From: a virus
Length of the DNA stretch: 15,144 nucleotides
Virus genome (UHGV): UHGV-2113352
Reading direction: 5' to 3' (one strand)
Made by a program: the position numbers and the translations under genes. The first letter of the stretch is position 1. Every line of letters starts with the position of its first letter. Positions 203-15,144 of the stretch are shown in pieces. The notes below the pieces were generated by a model. It saw only the letters and a list, made by a program, of their open reading frames with translations. It did no database searches and was not told the DNA's origin.

Positions 203-694
203 TTAAAGAAAAATATTCATAGCCAAGAATCCGACACCTCCAGCCAACACCAAGATACCTAAAACAACTATGGTTCGTAGCCCGCTTATCGATCTTTGCT
301 GAGACTCCGCCGCCGCCTCTAACTTGCTTTTCAATTCCGCTAATTGTTTAGCAATGCGGCTATCACTTGCTGTGCAGCCTTGTTCAAACTGCTCAGGTGT
401 TACAAACTTCAAGGCTGCAACCTCACGCCTTAGTTTCAACTGTTCATCTTTGATCTGGCCTAGAAGATCATTTAGTGACATAAGGCGACCGTCAAACTCT
501 TCAAATTTATTCGAGTTCTTCGTAAACAATTCAGCGTGTTCATAAGCTAGATTTACGAGCGTTGATTTCGCAGCCTCTATCTCAGTTCTTGCATCGCTGA
601 CGGCGCTCAACAGGCCATTAAACTGTGCCACTTGCGTCGATTGCTCTTCGAGTGAATCGATTACCCGGTGTAGTTTCTGTATGTCATTCACCAA
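203..694 (-). CDS. Small coiled-coil protein with C-terminal transmembrane anchor; third gene of the candidate defence operon
   Basis: 163-aa ORF. Charged, Leu-rich, heptad-like central region followed by a hydrophobic C-terminal segment (TIVVLGILVLAGGVGFLAMNIFL). Its start (TTG 692-694 or GTG 689-691) overlaps the stop of the upstream giant gene (TGA 688-690). A Shine-Dalgarno-like AAGGGG lies on the minus strand at about 700-705. No family recognised. Confidence 0.6.
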   Translation of the reverse strand: MVNDIQKLHRVIDSLEEQSTQVAQFNGLLSAVSDARTEIEAAKSTLVNLAYEHAELFTKNSNKFEEFDGRLMSLNDLLGQIKDEQLKLRREVAALKFVTPEQFEQGCTASDSRIAKQLAELKSKLEAAAESQQRSISGLRTIVVLGILVLAGGVGFLAMNIFL

Positions 695-3600
695 TTAATC
701 CCCTTGTATAGGCTGGTAAGTTTTTCAAGTCTAATTGCCAGTGGAGCTAACAAAGTGTGATAGGAGAACGGATCTCCTAGCTCTTCATTTACTTCCCCAA
801 GAAAATCCAAATCTTCAAATTTCTCATGGACCAAACGAGCAAAGCGACTTCGCGCATTTTCAGAAAATATTGGTTTTAACTGCATAGTTTTTCGGACCAG
901 CTCTAGTGCTTCATCCCTATTATCACTGATCAACCGATCAAATGACGATGCCATTCTTCGCTCTCCATCTGCATCATCAAACTCATCGGAAGCTAGTCGC
1001 AGCACACCACTCAAGTAGTTCAAGAATGCATTATCTTTGTATGACTCTAGGAATCGAGAAATCTGACCTCGTAGGATCGTCATCTTCTCGCTGCTTACTA
1101 AATGTTCCGAGCCCTCTTCTTCATCAGTTTCAAAAAAAACTGATGGCCATAACCTCACCGACACAGAATTCTCAGCCATATTGAGCAAAAGTTGGCTCGA
1201 CTTGTCGTGTCTGAAATAACCCTCTAACTTCTCCTTAAATTCTTTACCATCCATCCTGCCTTCAGCAAATAAACTACAGTGTTCATAAACATTCTTCTGT
1301 GACTGGCGGCGGTTGTAGACAAAATGGTCATAGGACCAAAGTAAAAGAACAAGAAAGATAAATTGCGATTTATCGATAGACCCTTTTCTCAGCTTGTCGC
1401 AGAGAATTTTGTAGTACTGGTTATCACTACTGAACACATCAGCGAGCTTAAACTCAGGATCATACTTTCTGACGGTATGCTCAATTTTCTTTTCCAGGCC
1501 TTCTTCCGATAGGCACTGGAACTCGACAGAGAGCGTTCCATTAAAAAAGTCTTCGATTACCCAGTCAGAGACAATACCTAATTGAGAAAGGCGGTAGATA
1601 GCCTTTTCCAATTTAAACTTTTCCGTACCAAACTGCCTGGCAGTAATGGTCACCGTGTTGTGTTCCTGATTGTACTTAAAAAATTCGTATACATTTGCCA
1701 TCAACTTGAACTCATCATTGATTGTGTCCAAGCCGTTTGTCATCAGGAATAGATTTGTGTTCAGGTCGCTATCGCGACTCAATGACTTCACGTACTCCTT
1801 CAGATCTTTGACGTTCGTGCTAGCGTCCCAAATCTTGTCGAGAATAGCTGAATTGGGCTCTTTTGTGAGAAGCACATAGCAATCTGCGGGTACTTCCTTG
1901 AATAGTTTTTTATCTCGCCCTGCCCTGCCAGCTTCCTGATACAAGGCCTCCATCGACCCAGGTATTCCGAAGTGAACCGTATAGGCAATATTTCCCTTAT
2001 TCACGCCCATTCCGAATGCCTTAGTGGCAGTAAGTAGGCGGTATTTATTTTCTTTAAAATCGTCTTGAACTTGGCGCTTATATCTATCGAAAGCCTCTCC
2101 CTGCAATCCACCCATTTTCGGAGCCGACCCCGAAAAATATCTAACATCCATCTTCAAGAGTGTTGATATTCGGCCCGCTAAGCTATAACACCCCTTAGCT
2201 CCGTTGACGGTAGAAGTGAATATGATCCCCGCCTTATTGCCGTCTTCCCCATCTGAATTCCATTTACCCTCCATTTCAGAAACAAGCTCGACGACTGCAT
2301 CACCTTTACGGCCTTTATCGTCAATGACGTGGAATGATAGTTCCTCGCGAGTGAAGTCCATGGGGGTACGGACAAAATCATCTGGGATATCAAACTCTGT
2401 TTGAATATCCTTTAGGACGTTAACTGATGCTGTTGCCGTTAGACCTATATAACTCGCACTGGGAGCAAACCGTTCGATTGTATTTGCCAGGTTCAGATAA
2501 GAAGTCCTGAAATCATGTCCCCACTCAGACAAACAGTGAGCTTCATCGATCACCGCGTAGGCAAATGAGAGATCTAGTCCGATAGCCAACATCTCTTTTC
2601 TAAACGCATGGGTTTGGAATCGCTCAGGCGATATAAAAACGAAGAAGTACTTACCACGTCCGAAATCTCTCTGAACTTTGGCCTTCTCTCCTGCCTTCAA
2701 ATCACTTGTAATAAAATTGCTTCGAGTGAAGCCGATGCTATCCAAATCTGCTTTCTGGTCATACATCAAACTTTTTATCGGGCACACGACAAAGCTAACG
2801 GCTGGTTGCAGGACCGCAGACAGCTGGTAACAAATCGACTTACCCGAACCTGTAGGCAGCAATCCTATTGTGCCGTTTTTCGAAAGTGCAGATCCTATGA
2901 TACCAACCTGCCCTTCCCTGAAATCTACATCCTCTAGGTATGGTAGAAACAGGTTGCTGAGGAAGTATCTCAGCGACTCTCTCTGCTCGCTGCCTGGGCT
3001 AAGATCTAGCTTGTAGGTAATGGGGTTACTACATGAAAGCTCGAAAAAGTCATAGTCAATCAATTGACTGGTTTCTATTGAAACAGCATCAGAATCTTCG
3101 AAGTTTCGATAGAAATCGAAGTAATCCGTACGTGAATATATGACGTCTTGGTTAACTTGAAAGGAATCGTCATAACGCTCCAGTAAGCTGAAGTCGATGA
3201 ATATATTTTCACCAGACCGTTCGCTCGGAAGCTCATCTGATTCGATCAGCGCAACCTCAATTCGCTTTTCTTCAATGCCGATGAGACGAAAGATATTCGA
3301 TAACAAATCGTTCAGGTCGTCCAGTGCCGCTTCAGCAAAATCAGTTCCATCACGATTGACTATGAATAGTTTTTTCAACTCCCCTAGTCTGATCTGACCG
3401 CGTTCAAGAAGCTCTAATAACAGTATCTGGAAACGCAACGCCGAGGTCAGCCTCAATCGCGAGTCAGTAACATCGACTCCATTTTCATAAGCCTCTTGGT
3501 AATTCAATAAAGAAATACCATTAGGAGGCGTTAGGACACCATTTCGCTCTAGACTATCAACGAGCTGAATTTGAGAAATAATCGAATTTATCTTACTGAT

Positions 3601-5364
3601 AAATGACTGATTCTCAGATGCCACTTCTCGAACAGTGAAACGAACTGTCTTCAGTCCCAAGGTTTCAGTAAACGCATCCCTCATCTCATCTAAATGCTGA
3701 GAATTTTGGTGCTGTTGACCATCTATCTCAATAATTAAACCAACTTGAGGAATGTAAAAATCTACCTGTCGGTTCTGGAATTGTTCAACGTAGACCTGAG
3801 TCATATCGTAAATCTGAACTTCAGGGAGCATTAGTTGTTTTACAAAAATGTACTCACCGAAATACTTTGGAATCAGCTCATCAAAAAACCTTTTCGCTGG
3901 GTAGTACCCAGAATGCTTGTTGCCTCGAATCAATCTATTCCAAAAAACTGGCTTATCTGACACAAGAGCCTGAGCTGATGTATTAAGACCGCTCTTCTCC
4001 AGTTCAATGCCAAATGCCTTCCTCAGTTTCCGCGAGGCTATTGTTGGCTTCCCTCTCTGAAGCATATTCTTAAGAACTTGAATTGCTGCAAATAGCTGTC
4101 CAGACGCCGCTTCAGACGAGATAGAATACTGGAGAAGATTGTGGAAAATGAAGTTATGGTTGGTTCTCGCGTAGTTAGCAGAAAACTTCTTGCTTACAAG
4201 CCTGCTACTAGACTTCGACCTGACATGTCTAGATAGTTCACTTTCGTCCGCCAGCGAGTCGATGATTGGGTTGTACAAATCTGAAAACAGTTGGTTATTG
4301 TGTTGTTGTTCTTGGCTGTCAGTGCCTAGCTCCAATCTATAGAGAGTTTTAACCAACGTAAAAATGTAAATACTTGAATTCGGAAAAGCTTGAGATAGAC
4401 AGCGTGTTATCTCATCAGTTGTAGCCCCCGAAGTTAATACGTCGTCAATGATCAGAAATGTCGGATTTGAATTAGCTTCTATTGAATCAAAATCGGCTTT
4501 ATAGGCACCTCTGACCTGGTGGAGTCTTTGTGCTGCAGTGCAATTAGTCGATTTATCTAATACGTGATCTTTCTCTAATATCTTAGGTTGGTAAGAAGCC
4601 CCTAAAGCAACAGCCAGCGATTTGCCCAAGGTATCTAATGCTTTATCGTCATCTTCAGCCCTAAGCTCAGCGTGACCTAACGCTCGAACAACTATATCTA
4701 TGGCTGGGAATGAAGGAGCTAGCTCAACAGTCTTGTTAACCCAGCGGCGAACAGAAGTATTCTTGTTATCCTTGAAAGACCAAACTTCCTGTTTGATACC
4801 ATCTAAATAGAATCCCAGATGAAGTTTATTCCCAGATTGTATTAACTCAGAACGTCCAGTTCTTGCGGAGCTCCGCGTCGAGTTTTTTCCAATAAGCTCG
4901 GAGAGACTGCTTATTCCCTTATGTGACGAATCGATCTCCGAGGCAGAACCCCAATCTACTGAGAAAAACTCAACTCCTGCATTGGAAGCAGCGTCTCGAT
5001 CTAGGTTACTATCTCCTAAATAAATTGACTCGTCGGCGCTAACACCGAAGTACTCGAGAATACGAGTAACGCCCTCAGGGCTCGGCTTATGCTGCGTTAC
5101 ATCATGGTAGGCTACTACATAATCAACAGTGATACTGAAGTGTTTGAGTAGCCCCTGAACGTAGTTCGAAGGCGCATTCGAGAAGATAGCAACCTTGATT
5201 CCAACCGACCGAGCCGTTGTAACAAGGCCGACAACGTCCTGATTGATGACACAACCATTAAAGTACCTGGGTATGTCTCTCCATCGGCCAGCTGACCGAA
5301 GTGGTTCGAGGCTTGATGTATCAATAAGCGTGTCATCAAGATCGAGGACGATGACCTTTATCAC
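688..5364 (-). CDS. Giant multidomain protein: N-terminal HAD-type phosphatase, phosphoribosyltransferase (PRTase), DUF559 (Vsr-like) endonuclease-like domain, RecQ-like SF2 helicase, and an unassigned ~400-aa C-terminal region
   Basis: 1558-aa uninterrupted ORF. HAD motif I LDLDDTL (aa 7-13) and motif IV GDSNLD (aa 117-122), nt about 4945-5364. PRTase PRPP-binding motif FLIIDDVLTSGATT (aa 303-316, nt 4417-4458). DUF559-type motif VDFYIPQVGLIIEIDGQQH followed by ..RD..L..G..RF (aa 534-577, nt about 3565-3957). RecQ-type helicase motifs: Walker A LPTGSGKS (aa 836-843, nt 2836-2859, checked against DNA), VIDEAHCLSEWGHDFR (aa 938-953, checked), LTATA (aa 975-979), YQEAGRAGRD (aa 1142-1151). GTG start at 5362-5364 overlaps the TGA stop of the upstream DprA-like gene (GTGA); SD-like AAGGTGG sits 6 nt upstream. 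Confidence 0.85.
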   Translation of the reverse strand: MIKVIVLDLDDTLIDTSSLEPLRSAGRWRDIPRYFNGCVINQDVVGLVTTARSVGIKVAIFSNAPSNYVQGLLKHFSITVDYVVAYHDVTQHKPSPEGVTRILEYFGVSADESIYLGDSNLDRDAASNAGVEFFSVDWGSASEIDSSHKGISSLSELIGKNSTRSSARTGRSELIQSGNKLHLGFYLDGIKQEVWSFKDNKNTSVRRWVNKTVELAPSFPAIDIVVRALGHAELRAEDDDKALDTLGKSLAVALGASYQPKILEKDHVLDKSTNCTAAQRLHQVRGAYKADFDSIEANSNPTFLIIDDVLTSGATTDEITRCLSQAFPNSSIYIFTLVKTLYRLELGTDSQEQQHNNQLFSDLYNPIIDSLADESELSRHVRSKSSSRLVSKKFSANYARTNHNFIFHNLLQYSISSEAASGQLFAAIQVLKNMLQRGKPTIASRKLRKAFGIELEKSGLNTSAQALVSDKPVFWNRLIRGNKHSGYYPAKRFFDELIPKYFGEYIFVKQLMLPEVQIYDMTQVYVEQFQNRQVDFYIPQVGLIIEIDGQQHQNSQHLDEMRDAFTETLGLKTVRFTVREVASENQSFISKINSIISQIQLVDSLERNGVLTPPNGISLLNYQEAYENGVDVTDSRLRLTSALRFQILLLELLERGQIRLGELKKLFIVNRDGTDFAEAALDDLNDLLSNIFRLIGIEEKRIEVALIESDELPSERSGENIFIDFSLLERYDDSFQVNQDVIYSRTDYFDFYRNFEDSDAVSIETSQLIDYDFFELSCSNPITYKLDLSPGSEQRESLRYFLSNLFLPYLEDVDFREGQVGIIGSALSKNGTIGLLPTGSGKSICYQLSAVLQPAVSFVVCPIKSLMYDQKADLDSIGFTRSNFITSDLKAGEKAKVQRDFGRGKYFFVFISPERFQTHAFRKEMLAIGLDLSFAYAVIDEAHCLSEWGHDFRTSYLNLANTIERFAPSASYIGLTATASVNVLKDIQTEFDIPDDFVRTPMDFTREELSFHVIDDKGRKGDAVVELVSEMEGKWNSDGEDGNKAGIIFTSTVNGAKGCYSLAGRISTLLKMDVRYFSGSAPKMGGLQGEAFDRYKRQVQDDFKENKYRLLTATKAFGMGVNKGNIAYTVHFGIPGSMEALYQEAGRAGRDKKLFKEVPADCYVLLTKEPNSAILDKIWDASTNVKDLKEYVKSLSRDSDLNTNLFLMTNGLDTINDEFKLMANVYEFFKYNQEHNTVTITARQFGTEKFKLEKAIYRLSQLGIVSDWVIEDFFNGTLSVEFQCLSEEGLEKKIEHTVRKYDPEFKLADVFSSDNQYYKILCDKLRKGSIDKSQFIFLVLLLWSYDHFVYNRRQSQKNVYEHCSLFAEGRMDGKEFKEKLEGYFRHDKSSQLLLNMAENSVSVRLWPSVFFETDEEEGSEHLVSSEKMTILRGQISRFLESYKDNAFLNYLSGVLRLASDEFDDADGERRMASSFDRLISDNRDEALELVRKTMQLKPIFSENARSRFARLVHEKFEDLDFLGEVNEELGDPFSYHTLLAPLAIRLEKLTSLYKGINW

Positions 5365-12296: not shown

Positions 12297-12566
12297 ATGT
12301 CCGCACTGAAAAAGCAGCGCATCGATTTGAGATTAACCGATGACGATAAAAGCATCATCGAGGAAGCTGCCGCAATGTCTAACCAGAGCATTACCCAGTT
12401 CATGGTTAGCAGTGCATCCGAACGTGCCGTGAAGGTGATAGAGCAACACCGTAGACTGGTTCTAAGTGAAGAGTCCTGGAATCTGGTTATGGATGCTATA
12501 AGCAATCCTCCGGCACCGAACGACAAGCTGAAACGAGCTGCCAATCGTCTGAAAAGCATGGAGTAA
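12297..12566 (+). CDS. DUF1778 (RHH-type) antitoxin of a GNAT toxin-antitoxin pair (TacA/AtaR-like)
   Basis: 89-aa ORF MSALKKQRIDLRLTDDDKSIIEEAAA..SNPPAPNDKLKRAANRLKSME closely matches the TacA/AtaR antitoxin family as I remember it. Sits 7 nt upstream of the GNAT toxin gene. AGGGGG SD before the ATG. Confidence 0.8.
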   Translation: MSALKKQRIDLRLTDDDKSIIEEAAAMSNQSITQFMVSSASERAVKVIEQHRRLVLSEESWNLVMDAISNPPAPNDKLKRAANRLKSME

Positions 12567-12573
12567 TTTACTC

Positions 12574-13095
12574 GTGAGCAATACGACGATCGAGATTTTC
12601 TCTGGAGAGAACGATTATGATCTAAACGGTTTTGATTGCGGCGAAGAGTCACTAAACGCATTTTTGACCAACCACTTAAAAAGACAGCATGAAGGAAAAA
12701 TTCTTCGCGCTTATGTGCTTTGCACTAAAGAAGAAATACCAAAGGTATTAGGTTATTACACTTTGTCAGGCAGCTGCTTTGAGAAAGAAACCTTACCTTC
12801 AAAGAGTCAGCAAAAGAAAGTGCCTTATCGGAATGTCCCAAGTATCACTTTAGGCAGACTGGCTTTGGACAAATCTCTTCAAGGTCAGGGGCTTGGCTCA
12901 ATGCTTGTAACTCACGCAATGCGTGTTGTGTACAATGCATCTCTTGCGGTAGGCATTCATGGGCTTTTCGTTGAGGCGTTGAACGATAAAGCCAGGGCGT
13001 TTTATAAAAGTTTGGGCTTTATCCAGCTGGTTGGTAACAACGATCGTTCTTTGTTCTATCCAACAAAATCTATCGAAAAATTGTTCGAAGAATAA
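12574..13095 (+). CDS. GNAT-family acetyltransferase toxin (TacT/AtaT-like, aminoacyl-tRNA acetylating)
   Basis: 173-aa ORF with GTG start. Acetyl-CoA binding motif QGQGLGSMLV; size and the upstream DUF1778 antitoxin are typical of TacAT/AtaRT/KacAT modules. Confidence 0.8.
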   Translation: MSNTTIEIFSGENDYDLNGFDCGEESLNAFLTNHLKRQHEGKILRAYVLCTKEEIPKVLGYYTLSGSCFEKETLPSKSQQKKVPYRNVPSITLGRLALDKSLQGQGLGSMLVTHAMRVVYNASLAVGIHGLFVEALNDKARAFYKSLGFIQLVGNNDRSLFYPTKSIEKLFEE

Positions 13096-13101
13096 TGTGT
13101 C

Positions 13102-13117
13102 CCCCTCATTTGAGGGG
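13102..13117 (+). terminator. GC-rich hairpin immediately after the tacT stop codon (possible terminator or stabilising stem-loop in the convergent gap)
   Basis: CCCCTC (13102-13107), loop ATTT, GAGGGG (13112-13117), starting 7 nt after TAA (13093-13095). No clear U-tract on the plus strand; modestly T-rich on the minus-strand side. Confidence 0.25.
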
Positions 13118-13127
13118 AACTTGGACA

Positions 13128-13343
13128 TCACCAACCGCAAACTCTCTCTCCCATCGTATTGTGAAAAAGGATTTGGCGTTCGGTTTCTTCGGTCATTACA
13201 TCGTCATTGCTGATATAAATAGGTTCAGCGCCATCGCAGAACAACACGCTGGTGGTCTGTGGCTTAATTACGCACCCACTTATCATGCAGCTCACGATGA
13301 ATGGCAGAAGCATCTTTCTGACGTATTTCACTGTTCGTCTCAT
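13128..13343 (-). CDS. Putative o-spanin (Rz1-like outer-membrane lipoprotein), overlapping the 3' end of the i-spanin-like gene in another frame
   Basis: 71-aa ORF with ATG at 13341-13343. Lipoprotein-type signal peptide: basic n-region MRRTVKYVRK, hydrophobic MLLPFIVSCMIS and lipobox ISGC. The short mature part has further Cys residues. Overlaps 13264-13343 of the upstream gene and extends beyond its stop, the overlapped spanin architecture. Confidence 0.4.
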   Translation of the reverse strand: MRRTVKYVRKMLLPFIVSCMISGCVIKPQTTSVLFCDGAEPIYISNDDVMTEETERQILFHNTMGERVCGW

Positions 13344-13515
13344 TCACCACTTCCACTGTGCTTTGAAGACGCTTGTTATCTTCCCGCCGTTCTTTCTCTT
13401 CCATACTGCGTCTGGCCATATACCCGCCATAGGAGTATGCGCCGACAAGGACTAGAATGACGGCGGCCAGAGTGAACAAAGCGGATTTCATTTTGAACAA
13501 CAGGCCGTCGAACAT
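13264..13515 (-). CDS. Putative i-spanin (Rz-like) or holin-like small membrane protein
   Basis: 83-aa ORF. N-terminal transmembrane segment ALFTLAAVILVLVGAYSYGGY followed by a highly charged periplasmic-type tail. ATG at 13513-13515 is only 2 nt downstream of the stop of the preceding gene. Contains the overlapping lipoprotein ORF. Confidence 0.4.
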   Translation of the reverse strand: MFDGLLFKMKSALFTLAAVILVLVGAYSYGGYMARRSMEEKERREDNKRLQSTVEVVNETNSEIRQKDASAIHRELHDKWVRN

Positions 13516-13517
13516 AC

Positions 13518-14237
13518 TTACACTAATCCTTTCTGGTGCTTGCGAACCTGGGACCAGGCAATGAATGCTGCCACAAGAATGGTAGCTACGCCAAAGATGA
13601 TGCGTACCGTATCTCCACTGGAGATATTGCCTTGCGCTTTATCCATTGCGGCAGAAACTTGAGGCATAACGTCAGCAATTTGTGCAAGGCCAATACCTGC
13701 AGTGACTGTAGCACCTGTGGTTTCTTTTGTTACTGGAACGGCTTTTACAGCCTTTACCGGTTTGACAATGCCGGCACGTCGCAGACCTTCTTCGATAAGT
13801 TCTGGTGTATACCAGCTATTGGGAGTTTTCAGCGGACCTCGGCCATTTTCATGTCTAATGATCGCCTCTACCAGCGGTCTTAAGGTCTCGTAGTCATGCA
13901 GATCGATAATCATATCTGGTGCTACTCCAACGGCTTTGGATACCTCGTTCACATAAGCCAAAGTGTTGTTCTCATGTGGAGGCGCCCAGCGTTCGATGAC
14001 TTCGCGGATCGTATCAATGCTGGAGCCATCTTTTGCGCGGCGCTTGTCGTGGTAAGTAATGAGTGTCACTGCCAATGCCCGAATCCCCCACACGGGGTCT
14101 TTAAACGTGCAGAAGCGCGGTTCTGAAGAGTTGTTGACTAAGCCCTGCCACGGCGCTCCTTTATCAAGATTACCGGGGTTGTTATTACGAATGCCTCTCG
14201 GAGTTTTCATCCTTGATCTCCTGTTATTGCAATCCAT
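13518..14237 (-). CDS. Hypothetical membrane-anchored protein; candidate lysis enzyme (endolysin-like) by position only
   Basis: 239-aa ORF with ATG at 14235-14237. Conserved-looking N-terminal motif RGIRNNNPGNL; C-terminal hydrophobic helix VRIIFGVATILVAAFIAWSQV. Located between a small membrane protein gene and the spanin-like pair. No catalytic family could be assigned by eye. Confidence 0.5.
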   Translation of the reverse strand: MDCNNRRSRMKTPRGIRNNNPGNLDKGAPWQGLVNNSSEPRFCTFKDPVWGIRALAVTLITYHDKRRAKDGSSIDTIREVIERWAPPHENNTLAYVNEVSKAVGVAPDMIIDLHDYETLRPLVEAIIRHENGRGPLKTPNSWYTPELIEEGLRRAGIVKPVKAVKAVPVTKETTGATVTAGIGLAQIADVMPQVSAAMDKAQGNISSGDTVRIIFGVATILVAAFIAWSQVRKHQKGLV

Positions 14238-14559
14238 TTTTTACGCCATACGCGGCCAATCCTAAAAGCAGTACGGTAATAATGAACGACGTTATTTTCG
14301 AAACAATGCCGCCAAAGAACCCACTGGAGATGGTGTCGAGCCGGTTAAGAAGTTTGTCCAGATTGGAGTGCTGAATGCTGTATTGTGCGGGCGTCATATC
14401 GCCAAAGTAGGTTTTGAGCTGGTCATTGACCTCCTGACCAATTTCCTCGCGTATTTCTTTACCTAATTTGCCTACGACTTCCCGAGCAACGATTGAGGCG
14501 ATGCGCTCAACCTGTTCAGTTGTGACTCCCGCCATCTCGTTCGACATGTTTTCCTCCAT
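14224..14559 (-). CDS. Small membrane protein, candidate holin or antiholin (positional inference)
   Basis: 111-aa ORF with ATG at 14557-14559. Hydrophilic N-terminal ~75 aa and a single C-terminal transmembrane helix ITSFIITVLLLGLAAYGV. Overlaps the next gene by 14 nt. Confidence 0.45.
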   Translation of the reverse strand: MEENMSNEMAGVTTEQVERIASIVAREVVGKLGKEIREEIGQEVNDQLKTYFGDMTPAQYSIQHSNLDKLLNRLDTISSGFFGGIVSKITSFIITVLLLGLAAYGVKNGLQ

Positions 14560-14607
14560 GAAAAGTCAAATCGGGATGGCGTGTTTATATCATATTTTAA
14601 CCATTTG

Positions 14608-14631
14608 TAGTAGGTATGTACTTACCTACTA
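14608..14631 (-). promoter_or_regulatory. Candidate operator (motif A, copy 2) upstream of the lysis-like operon
   Basis: TAGTAGGTA-TGTACT-TACCTACTA: a perfect 9-bp inverted repeat with 6-bp spacer. Lies 49-72 nt upstream of the ATG at 14559 and shares the 15-mer TAGGTATGTACTTAC with copy 1. Confidence 0.45.
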
Positions 14632-14680
14632 TATATCTTGCAAACTAATCGTTGTTAATAATGCAGATATAATCTGCCCC

Positions 14681-15028
14681 TTACTCTGCTGGTATTGTTG
14701 GCCAGTCAATATCCGGTGCCGTTGATGTGTCAATGCGGTTCAATAAAACTCTATACTTCTTCCATGCAGTCAGCAACGATGCTTCTTCCTCCGTTGCAAT
14801 CTCCAAATCTACAGCATCCTGAAGTGGCGCAATGTGCTCGCTGGCTACCTGCATCAGACTTTTTTTTGTTTCTTCCGCTTCCCGTACCTGAAACAATTTT
14901 TCTGTTTCCTTATCCTTCTCCCAGGATGTGCCGTCCCACTTCTGATATTCCCCATCCGGTGATAACCAGGTGACATTTTCCGGTAATGGCCCAAGTTCAG
15001 AAATAAACAACGCGTCCCCTGATTCCAC
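14681..15028 (-). CDS. Tail fibre assembly protein (Tfa family), apparently lacking an N-terminal domain
   Basis: 115-aa ORF ending ..[32 protein letters not shown], the conserved C-terminal signature of enterobacterial phage Tfa proteins (TfaE, Mu U, P1 U type). The track start is GTG at 15026-15028. The same frame stays open upstream to a stop at 15128-15130 and encodes ..[11 protein letters not shown].., which looks like continued Tfa homology, with no ATG/GTG/TTG in between. Confidence 0.7.
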
Positions 15029-15144
15029 GTCATAGACCGTTTTACCCCTGTGGTCTTCAACGAGACTCCGGTAATGACTCCAACTTATTGATAGTGTTTT
15101 ATGTTCAGATAATGCCCGATGACTTTGTCATGCAGCTCCACCGA

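Follow-up and report, generated by a model that had tools for sequence, protein, structure and literature searches.

The window, a 15,144-nt stretch of DNA that originates from an SSU5-like phage-plasmid, carries on its minus strand two overlapping ORFs that are very probably an i-spanin gene and an o-spanin gene, the last two genes of a lysis operon that runs in the order holin-position gene, Enc34-type endolysin, i-spanin, o-spanin and hairpin. Both ORFs are shown to code for protein and to be under purifying selection; the spanin function of the pair we infer by analogy with described systems. The pair is already known, since its equivalent in phage SSU5, whose genes have been annotated since 2012, was catalogued by Kongari et al. 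in 2018.

The putative i-spanin gene (13264..13515, minus strand, read from 13515 to 13264) comprises 83 codons and a stop, and the putative o-spanin gene (13128..13343, minus strand, read from 13343 to 13128) comprises 71 codons and a stop and would specify the precursor of an outer-membrane lipoprotein. An earlier note had pointed to these two ORFs, omitting their strand, and had claimed that the lipoprotein ORF begins within the 83-aa gene, in another frame, and passes its stop. Both are present there with exactly this arrangement: the 71-aa ORF starts inside the 83-aa gene and runs on for 136 nt beyond its stop, and (13515-13343) mod 3 = 1, which places it in the +1 frame. The overlap of 80 nt (13264..13343, minus strand) is dual-coding, containing codons 58-83 and the stop of the i-spanin gene together with codons 1-27 of the o-spanin gene; the o-spanin part encodes the signal peptide, the lipobox and the first mature residues.

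The length of the o-spanin ORF is not significant in itself because the window contains 41 ORFs of at least 70 aa. What is decisive for its being more than a chance frame is its conservation in relatives, along with the codon-position pattern of their substitutions. Related loci diverge from the window by up to about 33% at the nucleotide level, and in every one of them (100 of 100) the o-spanin ATG lies at i-start+172 in the +1 frame, the lipobox falls on codons 21-24 and the frame stays open over 71-80 aa. An i-spanin profile search gave 4 loci from genome contigs and 80 loci from viral contigs, used for the statistics, and substitutions were counted by parsimony on 59 distinct sequences. 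In the i-spanin gene, changes are dominated by the wobble position (3.38 changes/site at position 3 versus 1.50, p = 2e-9), and the same holds for the o-spanin frame in its non-overlapped part (5.86 at position 3 versus 1.29 at positions 1/2, p = 1e-15). Inside the overlap, the wobble rate of the i-spanin frame falls from 3.38 to 1.88 changes/site (p = 0.0014), and the overall rate there is 1.5 as against 2.43 changes/site (p = 0.003). The frozen wobble bases of the i-spanin frame coincide with the start ATG, F15, I16, C24 and I26 of the o-spanin. Asn58 of the i-spanin, for example, is AAT in 59 of 59 sequences and never AAC, which preserves the o-spanin ATG, while in i-spanin codon 81 the first base varies (G/C/T/A) and the third is a fixed G, the middle base of the Cys24 codon TGC. 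The earlier note would have abandoned its reading if the lipobox ORF had lacked conservation or a dual-coding pattern in relatives; it is in fact conserved and bears the marks of dual coding, and the geometry of the overlap is invariant across the relatives.

How much of the family is recovered depends on the method of search. Single-sequence searches of a 5.8-billion-protein set returned close relatives only, all named "hypothetical protein", and neither small protein matched a Pfam or NCBIfam family above the curated threshold, the 71-aa protein having no NCBIfam match at all. A profile of diverse o-spanins reached a wider family, with more than 328 homologous protein clusters, and tblastn found the o-spanin in 260 phage records, many of them annotated as o-spanin, Rz1 or Rz-like spanin. 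In Bordetella and Burkholderia prophages and in a Xanthomonas phage, the same pair stands behind an endolysin gene too, and the endolysins there belong to three enzyme types that are unrelated.

The 83-aa protein matches the PHROG family phrog_1026, "Rz-like spanin" (4e-22), and weakly the holin family phrog_1350 (E 0.0099). It has a single hydrophobic segment, with a Kyte-Doolittle 19-residue maximum of 2.09 at residues 6-24 and all windows above 1.6 within residues 4-34. The predicted transmembrane segment, SALFTLAAVILVLVGAYSYGG (13423..13485, minus strand; codons ~11-31, the boundaries being our reading), contains residues that are invariant among relatives, namely T15, A17, A18, V19, V22, L23, G25, A26, Y27, G30 and G31. 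The 52 residues that follow it are 44% charged and end in ...HRELHDKWVRN; i-spanin ends vary among loci. AF2 models the protein as one uninterrupted helix from residue 2 to 82, with no hinged hairpin. These features, with a predicted N-in topology, are those by which Kongari et al. (2018) recognise an i-spanin: small size, one transmembrane domain at the N-terminus and a C-terminal domain that lies in the periplasm.

The 71-aa protein matches phrog_1275, also "Rz-like spanin" (3e-25), and the textbook lipoprotein signal that had been claimed for it is there in all its parts: an n-region with five basic residues (MRRTVKYVRK), a hydrophobic core (MLLPFIVSCM), the lipobox ISGC and Val at +2. The lipobox codons I21-S22-G23-C24 lie at 13272..13283 (minus strand), Cys24 being the predicted lipidated first mature residue. 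When a lipoprotein-signal rule was applied to the six frames of the window, this ORF was the sole fit, the average for simulated 15-kb sequences being 0.195. Among relatives, the lipobox is [IVT][SN]GC in 100 of 100 loci, and some have an unusual Asn at position -2 (INGC, TNGC); in one locus, Phe directly follows the lipobox Cys. The Lol pathway keeps lipoproteins with Asp at +2 in the inner membrane, and the Val at this position predicts sorting to the outer membrane. An SPII signal with a lipobox Cys and no Asp at +2 is what Kongari et al. (2018) look for in an o-spanin, and all of this is found here, lipidation being predicted. The start is best placed at Met1, which is present in all 100 loci (59/59 distinct sequences) and is preceded at 6 nt by a Shine-Dalgarno-like GGAAG; Met11 (13313) is a less likely start, being less conserved (ATG in 51/59), poorer in context (GAAAG directly abutting the ATG) and leaving a signal peptide without a basic n-region.

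The mature o-spanin contains only two prolines and two cysteines, C36 and C69, which together with C24 are invariant across 43 diverse family members. AF2 folds residues 31-71 confidently (block pLDDT 84-98), and in a BFVD structural search the top matches bearing a functional name were O-spanins. Kongari et al. (2018) expect at least one periplasmic cysteine in a pair, for homotypic disulfides; the i-spanin here has none and the o-spanin two, and this 0 + 2 arrangement is the commonest combination in their database (PMC6139136).

The neighbouring genes form the lysis cassette that the earlier note had read from them. The endolysin gene (13518..14210, minus strand; 230 aa from Met10, in an ORF open up to 14237) starts where PGAP places the start in plasmid pTAir-3. 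Its product matches the PDB entry 7q47, "Endolysin", of the Enc34 type (E 5.9e-56) and the endolysin family phrog_873 (3e-86), and is 56% identical to the Season12 homologue. Enc34-type endolysins are a validated class. This one has a C-terminal transmembrane segment (hydrophobic maximum at residues 213-231), and the enzyme with which the spanin pair is linked is thus of an unusual, membrane-anchored kind. Two nt separate the endolysin stop from the i-spanin ATG, in keeping with the lysis-cassette location described for spanin genes by Kongari et al. (2018). Upstream, the holin-position gene (14224..14559, minus strand; 111 aa, or 107 aa from the PGAP start) encodes a protein with a single C-terminal hydrophobic segment (Kyte-Doolittle maximum 2.14 at residues 85-103) that matches phrog_5093, "unknown function" (7e-67); this putative holin is annotated "holin" in phages Cyrano and SSU5, and the Season12 gene at the corresponding place is not similar to it. 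At the other end, a hairpin with a 9-bp stem and 6 G-C pairs (13099..13120, minus strand) starts 8 nt past the o-spanin stop, between the lysis operon and the convergent tacT gene. The hairpin scan is not significant by itself because it found 1 site in 12900-15144 where shuffled sequences give 2.5, and the position of the hairpin is what points to a terminator role. A consensus scan detected no promoter-like site in 12900-15144; this, with the embedded o-spanin start and the 2-nt gap after the endolysin gene, suggests co-transcription of the o-spanin with the lysis genes. The order endolysin, i-spanin, o-spanin is likewise annotated in Chi-like phages, and the Enc34 paper reports a module of the same four genes, in which the Rz/Rz1-like ORFs overlap.

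The closest catalogued relative is the SSU5 pair, which Kongari et al. (2018; PMC6139136) list as an overlapped, +1-frame two-component spanin, with an i-spanin at 28585-28837 (83 aa), a singleton with 0 coiled-coil segments in the database table, and an o-spanin at 28769-29000 (76 aa) in the "Chi" o-spanin family. The earlier note had proposed comparison with curated spanin sets as a check on its spanin-like pair, and the listing of these orthologues, together with the PHROG matches, bears it out. SSU5_028 and SSU5_029 are 65% and 69% identical to the i- and o-spanin of the window, respectively. SSU5 belongs to the same phage-plasmid group, and the likeness extends to the 83-aa i-spanin, the +1 frame, the lipobox position, the upstream endolysin and the motifs of the mature o-spanin. 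The SSU5 o-spanin is annotated from a Met at -19 (76 aa, 68-nt overlap), whereas that of the window has no Met at -19 but has one at -23 and one at -13; all relatives, SSU5 included, have the ATG at -23, from which the 80-nt overlap results. The SSU5 o-spanin also has a 9-residue C-terminal extension, and its downstream genes are hypothetical, in contrast to the TacA/TacT pair of the window.

More distant are the spanins of the Chi-like siphophages Chi, iEPS5, FSL SP-030, Season12, Enc34 and Redjac. The o-spanin of Season12 (species Chivirus FSLSP030) is 40.6% identical to that of the window over 69 residues (E 1e-17); with identity computed on the whole protein, this places the window o-spanin in the "Chi" family, whose threshold is an identity of 40% or more across no less than 40% of the periplasmic domain. 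Chi-type o-spanins have in common with it the invariant Cys pair and a block P-I-Y...D...T...H-N...G...C-G-W. Their i-spanins are short, that of Season12 having 84 aa, are overlapped, end in W-x-R-D and, as in the window, follow an Enc34-type endolysin. Here the likeness to the window i-spanin is detected by profile comparison only (hhalign probability 97.7%, E 1.9e-12; the alignment includes the C-terminal motif), the Season12 protein giving no BLASTP match, and the holin-position gene is unrelated.

The prototype of the overlapped class, as Kongari et al. (PMC6139136) define it, is LysB/LysC of P2: there too, the o-spanin reading frame opens within the 3' portion of the i-spanin gene, is shifted by +1 and extends beyond the i-spanin stop. 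However, no sequence similarity to it was detected (NCBIfam gave no match of any sort for the 71-aa protein), P2 stands in a separate family in the tables of Kongari et al. (PMC6139136), and the i-spanin periplasmic domains of the P2-like phages PsP3, ST79 and RE_2010 have 119-124 residues, whereas the whole window i-spanin has 83. With Rz/Rz1 of lambda, the one spanin pair whose mechanism has been explored in depth, the window pair has in common a predicted type II inner-membrane protein, an outer-membrane lipoprotein, a position at the end of the cassette and periplasmic cysteines. Rz1 is nevertheless wholly embedded in Rz, whereas the window genes overlap only partly; Rz has two coiled-coil segments and two Cys, against no Cys and one unbroken predicted helix; and mature Rz1 is proline-rich and unstructured, against two Pro and a confidently predicted folded domain of ~40 residues. 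In Pfam and NCBIfam, no homology to Rz/Rz1 rises above the curated threshold, and the tables of Kongari et al. put SSU5 in separate families; the window and lambda pairs have architecture and predicted topology in common, with no common sequence family detected. The 0 + 2 cysteine arrangement resembles that of PseT.3/PseT.2 of T4. The combined periplasmic length of ~100 residues is at the short end of the reported range of 62-300 (PMC6139136). This short span counts against the spanin reading, as do the 0 coiled-coil segments of the SSU5 i-spanin, the unbroken AF2 helix, the scarcity of prolines in the mature o-spanin and the Asn at lipobox position -2 of some relatives.

Could the 83-aa protein instead be a holin, an antiholin or a membrane-timing protein, with a fortuitous lipoprotein overlap? 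It is small, has one transmembrane segment in a topology that is predicted, lies in a lysis cassette and has the weak match to phrog_1350; moreover, the upstream "holin" is itself putative, and Enc34-type endolysins are able to lyse cells without a holin (Enc34 paper), so the roles within the cassette might be assigned otherwise. This reading is nonetheless very improbable, and we reject it on the grounds of the PHROG spanin match, which surpasses the holin match by ~20 orders of magnitude, the fixed geometry of the 83-aa and lipoprotein genes in all 100 relatives and the long charged tail. Typical small holins have short C-terminal tails, which the helical tail of the 83-aa protein far exceeds. 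Distant phages, too, have the same pairing and the C-terminal W-x-R-D motif, and in them another small gene takes the place upstream of the endolysin where a holin gene usually lies. The objection that the earlier note had raised against itself, a holin with no spanin function, therefore does not hold, a separate holin-position gene lying upstream in the window as well.

A further reading starts from the 71-aa lipoprotein, which might be a lysogeny or exclusion factor (Cor-, Bor- or entry-exclusion-like) of the resident phage-plasmid rather than a lysis protein. SSU5-like elements have lipoproteins of this kind close by, as shown by SSU5_025 with its annotation as a Cor superinfection-exclusion protein, and the mature domain is compact, cysteine-bearing and not proline-rich. 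However, members of the family are also encoded by Chi-like and other siphophages (Season12, Shy and Langgrundblatt2), again behind the endolysin gene and in the same overlapped arrangement. Chi-like phages are virulent and would gain little from an exclusion gene. The embedded start and the signs of co-transcription also argue for a lysis gene, as does the o-spanin status given by Kongari et al. (PMC6139136), and we regard an exclusion factor as improbable. That the 71-aa frame is open by chance and resembles a lipobox gene by accident has a negligible probability: most of the long ORFs in the window are indeed spurious, Pfam and NCBIfam give no match for this one and PGAP omits it from plasmids that are nearly identical, but the substitution pattern that fits the lipoprotein frame, the intact ORF in every locus, the three invariant Cys and the breadth of the homologous clusters refute it.

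If the two proteins are a spanin pair, a mechanism may be proposed by analogy with lambda Rz/Rz1. The 83-aa protein would insert into the inner membrane via its N-terminal helix (N-in, C-out) and extend a helix of ~52 residues into the periplasm, while the 71-aa precursor would be exported, lipidated on Cys24, cut by signal peptidase II and taken by the Lol pathway to the outer membrane. The mature o-spanin of 48 residues would then consist of a ~10-residue linker and the compact domain with C36 and C69. The C-terminal regions of the two proteins would bind across the periplasm, the candidate contacts being L-H/R-x-x-W-x-R-D/N in the i-spanin and P-I-Y-x-S...D...T...H-N...G...C-x-W in the o-spanin. 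Once the endolysin had cleared the peptidoglycan mesh, the complex would disrupt the outer membrane or fuse it, and virions would be released. According to Kongari et al. (PMC6139136), essentially all experimental spanin work used lambda Rz/Rz1; a literature search for spanin-specific functional tests of SSU5- or Chi-type spanins found none, and in the BSPM4 work the whole cassette or a "putative spanin" was expressed without a spanin-specific assay. An unbroken helix of ~52 residues with neither coiled coil nor hinge predicted, a compact two-Cys domain and ~100 periplasmic residues in all seem poor material for a hairpin-collapse fusion machine such as has been proposed for Rz/Rz1. It is conceivable, though rather unlikely, that Chi/SSU5-type spanins work by a mechanism unlike the lambda model; they might act as a short tether where the membranes are closely apposed or as an outer-membrane-destabilising complex.

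The scientific weight of the finding is small, the overlapped architecture and the family having been catalogued in 2018, and its practical value lies in annotation. The earlier note had warned that gene callers easily miss the embedded ORF, and it is indeed missing or truncated in most of the records inspected: it is unlisted in the 99.8%-identical plasmid pTAir-3 and in 9 of 13 other plasmid records, it starts after the lipobox Cys in 3 more, and in phage Cyrano the annotated start is later still, at Val33. The consequence is a lost gene or a lost lipoprotein signal in SSU5-like phage-plasmids, which are common among clinical Enterobacteriaceae (the segment has matches in 723 plasmid records). 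Judging the completeness of their lysis modules needs a manual ORF check, for which the rule is simple: the o-spanin ATG is 172 nt into the 83-aa gene, and the codon for the lipobox Cys begins 11 nt before that gene ends, its stop codon included.

Two small ORFs lie on the minus strand of the window where the earlier note had placed an overlapped spanin-like pair: an 83-aa ORF running from the ATG at 13515 to the stop at 13266-13264, and a 71-aa ORF running from the ATG at 13343 to the stop at 13130-13128. The latter, the lipoprotein (o-spanin) gene, starts 172 nt into the former, the inner-membrane (i-spanin) gene, in the +1 frame, shares 80 nt with it (13264-13343), and extends 136 nt past its stop. 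The length of the 71-aa ORF is by itself uninformative because the window holds 41 ORFs of at least 70 aa. A lipoprotein-signal rule applied to all ORFs in the six frames of the window matched this ORF only, with 0.195 ORFs per window expected by chance from simulated sequences of the same composition. The N-terminus, MRRTVKYVRK (five basic residues), is followed by MLLPFIVSCM and the lipobox ISGC, with Val at +2, and the mature part, 48 residues long, contains two more cysteines as well as two prolines. Translation may start at either of two candidate codons: Met1 (13343), which is universal among relatives, gives the basic n-region, and has GGAAG 6 nt upstream, or Met11 (13313), which is found in 51 of the 59 distinct sequences. 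The 83-aa protein has a single hydrophobic segment near its N-terminus (Kyte-Doolittle 19-residue maximum of 2.09 at residues 6-24), with the transmembrane domain predicted at about residues 11-31; the 52 residues after it are 44% charged and contain neither Cys nor Pro.

This geometry was compared across 100 related loci carrying the same gene pair (15 annotated phage or plasmid records, the window, 4 bacterial genomes, and 80 IMG/VR contigs). In all 100, the 83-aa gene contains an ATG at exactly 172 nt from its start, in the +1 frame, the lipoprotein ORF is open for 71-80 codons, and a lipobox of the form [IVT][SN]GC occupies codons 21-24, some relatives having Asn at position -2. Individual inspection of 16 sequences put the start of the lipobox Cys codon 11 nt before the end of the 83-aa stop codon. 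The 83-aa gene itself is intact in 99/100 loci. The exception is an E. albertii plasmid (NZ_CP099896, 3190-4340), in which the i-spanin gene is frameshifted and the overlapping o-spanin ORF is intact; this may reflect a decaying lysis module of a phage-plasmid or a sequencing error.

The signature of dual coding, to which the earlier note had looked as a check on the overlap, is present both in the codon-position pattern of substitutions and in frozen wobble bases. Substitutions per site were counted by Fitch parsimony on a neighbour-joining tree of the 59 distinct sequences, whose divergence from the window reaches ~33%, and were compared by the Mann-Whitney test. Past the overlap, the lipoprotein ORF shows in its own frame 5.86 changes per site at third positions versus 1.29 at positions 1 and 2 (p 1e-15); ahead of the overlap, the corresponding values for the 83-aa gene are 3.38 versus 1.50 (p 2e-9). 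The wobble positions of the 83-aa gene drop from 3.38 changes per site before the overlap to 1.88 inside it (p 0.0014), and all positions taken together show 1.5 in the overlap versus 2.43 elsewhere (p 0.003). A site-by-site check showed that where wobble bases of the 83-aa gene are frozen, they coincide with the middle positions of key lipoprotein codons: Asn58 is encoded by AAT in 59/59 sequences, AAC being absent throughout, and this keeps the lipoprotein ATG; codon 81 has a free first base (G, C, T, or A) and a last base that is always G, the middle of Cys24 (TGC); and the fixed wobbles of Ile72, His73, and residue 83 correspond to the middle bases of Phe15, Ile16, and Ile26. Both ORFs are real genes with a fixed geometry.

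The 83-aa and 71-aa proteins match, over nearly the full profiles, phrog_1026 (4.2e-22) and phrog_1275 (2.9e-25), both 'Rz-like spanin'; Pfam and NCBIfam gave nothing above threshold for either. Their orthologues in Salmonella phage SSU5, to which they are 65% (i-spanin) and 69% (o-spanin) identical, are labelled putative Rz1 or Rz-like spanins in GenBank and RefSeq, and the spanin database of Kongari et al. 2018 (PMC6139136) lists the SSU5 pair as overlapped in the +1 frame. There, the i-spanin (28585-28837, 83 aa, with 50 periplasmic residues, a predicted helix content of 72%, and 0 coiled coils) forms a singleton family, and the o-spanin (28769-29000, 76 aa) is placed alongside Chi, Enc34, iEPS5, FSL SP-030/088/124, and Redjac in the 'Chi' family. 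Although a singleton under a 40% rule, the SSU5-type i-spanin aligns at full length to Chi-type i-spanins (hhalign, 97.7%, E 1.9e-12), with the C-terminal motif in register, although part of this score may be due to the transmembrane segment.

The o-spanin family is widespread: tblastn found it in 260 phage records, many annotated as o-spanin, Rz1, or Rz-like spanin, and a profile search found at least 328 protein clusters from phages and prophages of gamma- and betaproteobacteria, to none of which a Pfam domain was assigned. Across 43 diverse members, the invariant positions are the lipobox Cys, C36, D48, T54, and C69; those that are nearly invariant are I42, Y43, I58, H61, G65, and W71. In a Bordetella prophage, a Burkholderia prophage, and a Xanthomonas phage, the o-spanin homologue overlaps the end of a small gene; the product of that gene carries a hydrophobic segment at the N-terminus, and its tail closes with L-R-x-x-W-x-R-D. 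The endolysin directly upstream is of the Enc34 type in the first, Phage_lysozyme in the second, and Amidase_3 in the third; the same pair after three endolysin types therefore indicates that the spanins travel as a module regardless of enzyme type.

Sequence identity of the region is 84% to Escherichia phage Cyrano, 80% to SSU5, and 99.8% to plasmids, pTAir-3 among them; matches to the segment occur in 723 plasmid records, and the window is therefore a piece of an SSU5-like phage-plasmid. The remainder encodes a primase, a DnaB-like helicase, ParA, and a TacA/TacT pair. A large uncharacterised protein of 1558 aa (688-5364, minus strand), encoded next to the replication genes in SSU5-like elements, matches phrog_33220 (unknown function) over its whole length and has weaker helicase-like (residues 819-1172) and HAD-hydrolase-like (36-157) stretches. 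The pair follows, in minus-strand order, a tail-fibre assembly gene (14681-15028), a 111-aa gene in the holin position (14224-14559; phrog_5093, 'unknown function'), and an endolysin ORF (13518-14237), the ATG of the 83-aa gene lying 2 nt after the endolysin stop. The single hydrophobic segment of the holin-position protein lies at the extreme C-terminus, after a soluble stretch of ~80 N-terminal residues; the 'holin' label in the Cyrano and SSU5 annotation is putative. No similarity was found between it and the product of the same-position gene of the Chi-like phage Season12, though the endolysin and o-spanin of Season12 are homologous to those of the window.

The endolysin has a match in the catalytic domain solved for the phage Enc34 enzyme (PDB 7q47, E 5.9e-56), with which it also shares a C-terminal hydrophobic anchor (maximum at residues 213-231), and by sequence it belongs to the unusual Enc34/M4Lys type. 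This four-gene module is also described in the Enc34 paper, and endolysins of this type are reported to lyse cells without the help of a holin. The start used by PGAP in the 99.8%-identical plasmid is Met10 (14210), the ORF being open for 9 codons further upstream. Eight nt past the 71-aa gene, a hairpin with a 9-bp stem (13120-13099, minus strand) is the sole terminator-like site found by a scan of 12900-15144, where 2.5 are expected by chance; its position suggests that it could act as a terminator. The TacA (DUF1778) antitoxin and TacT-like GNAT acetyltransferase toxin genes (12297-13095, plus strand) converge on the lysis operon across a 32-nt gap containing this one hairpin, which could terminate both. 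SSU5 has other genes at this position, and the TacA/TacT pair is therefore a variable insert beside a conserved lysis module.

On the lambda Rz/Rz1 model and lipoprotein-sorting rules, from which the following steps are drawn, the 83-aa protein would be anchored N-in in the inner membrane with one helix in the periplasm. AF2 predicts a helix over residues 2-82 (mean pLDDT 75), and a 52-residue helix at 1.5 Å per residue would reach an estimated ~78 Å. The lipoprotein would be lipidated on Cys24 and then sent to the outer membrane; for its residues 31-71, AF2 gives a confident small domain (block pLDDT 84-98) with a short helix (35-38) and a second helix (52-69), and its best functionally named BFVD structural matches are annotated O-spanins. 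The obvious candidate contact is between the i-spanin tail and the o-spanin domain, both of them conserved, and once the endolysin opens the peptidoglycan, the complex would break or fuse the outer membrane. The cysteine pattern of the pair (0 in the i-spanin, 2 in the mature o-spanin) is the commonest in the 2018 database, and in T4, where this pattern was tested, both o-spanin cysteines are essential. The pair is short, its combined periplasmic length being ~100 residues against a reported range of 62-300. It also has no predicted coiled coils and is not rich in proline, so details of the lambda mechanism may not carry over; that this short, structured type works differently from Rz/Rz1 seems rather unlikely. 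No spanin-specific experiment on the SSU5/Chi-type family turned up in the literature searched.

The fixed geometry, the PHROG spanin families, the catalogued SSU5 homologues, and the position in the operon all favour the overlapped spanin pair originally proposed. The pair is homologous to catalogued spanins and stands at the end of a lysis operon. The expectation that gene callers miss the lipoprotein ORF was also borne out: it is unlisted in pTAir-3 and in 9 of the 13 other plasmid records inspected, some of these absences being possible artefacts of gene tables stated to be incomplete. In pHCM2, pE70-A, and a K. oxytoca plasmid, the o-spanin CDS starts at a GTG right after the lipobox Cys, and the Cyrano 'Rz1 spanin', a 39-aa fragment, and SSU5_030, a fragment much like it, start there or further downstream; such starts remove the signal peptide and make the entries unrecognisable as lipoproteins. 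Kongari et al. (PMC6139136) found 196/528 o-spanins without a CDS and 64 with a wrong start. The i-spanin too can escape, as seen in the Burkholderia prophage contig (Logan SRR1956047), where an uncalled ORF (2253-2570) between the Phage_lysozyme gene and the o-spanin homologue encodes an i-spanin-like product in which an N-terminal hydrophobic segment is followed by an Ala/Gln-rich middle and a tail reading ...LRDGWSRD. The pair is an ordinary, already known member of a catalogued spanin family in a well-known phage-plasmid group, and the main use of the finding is to correct its annotation.
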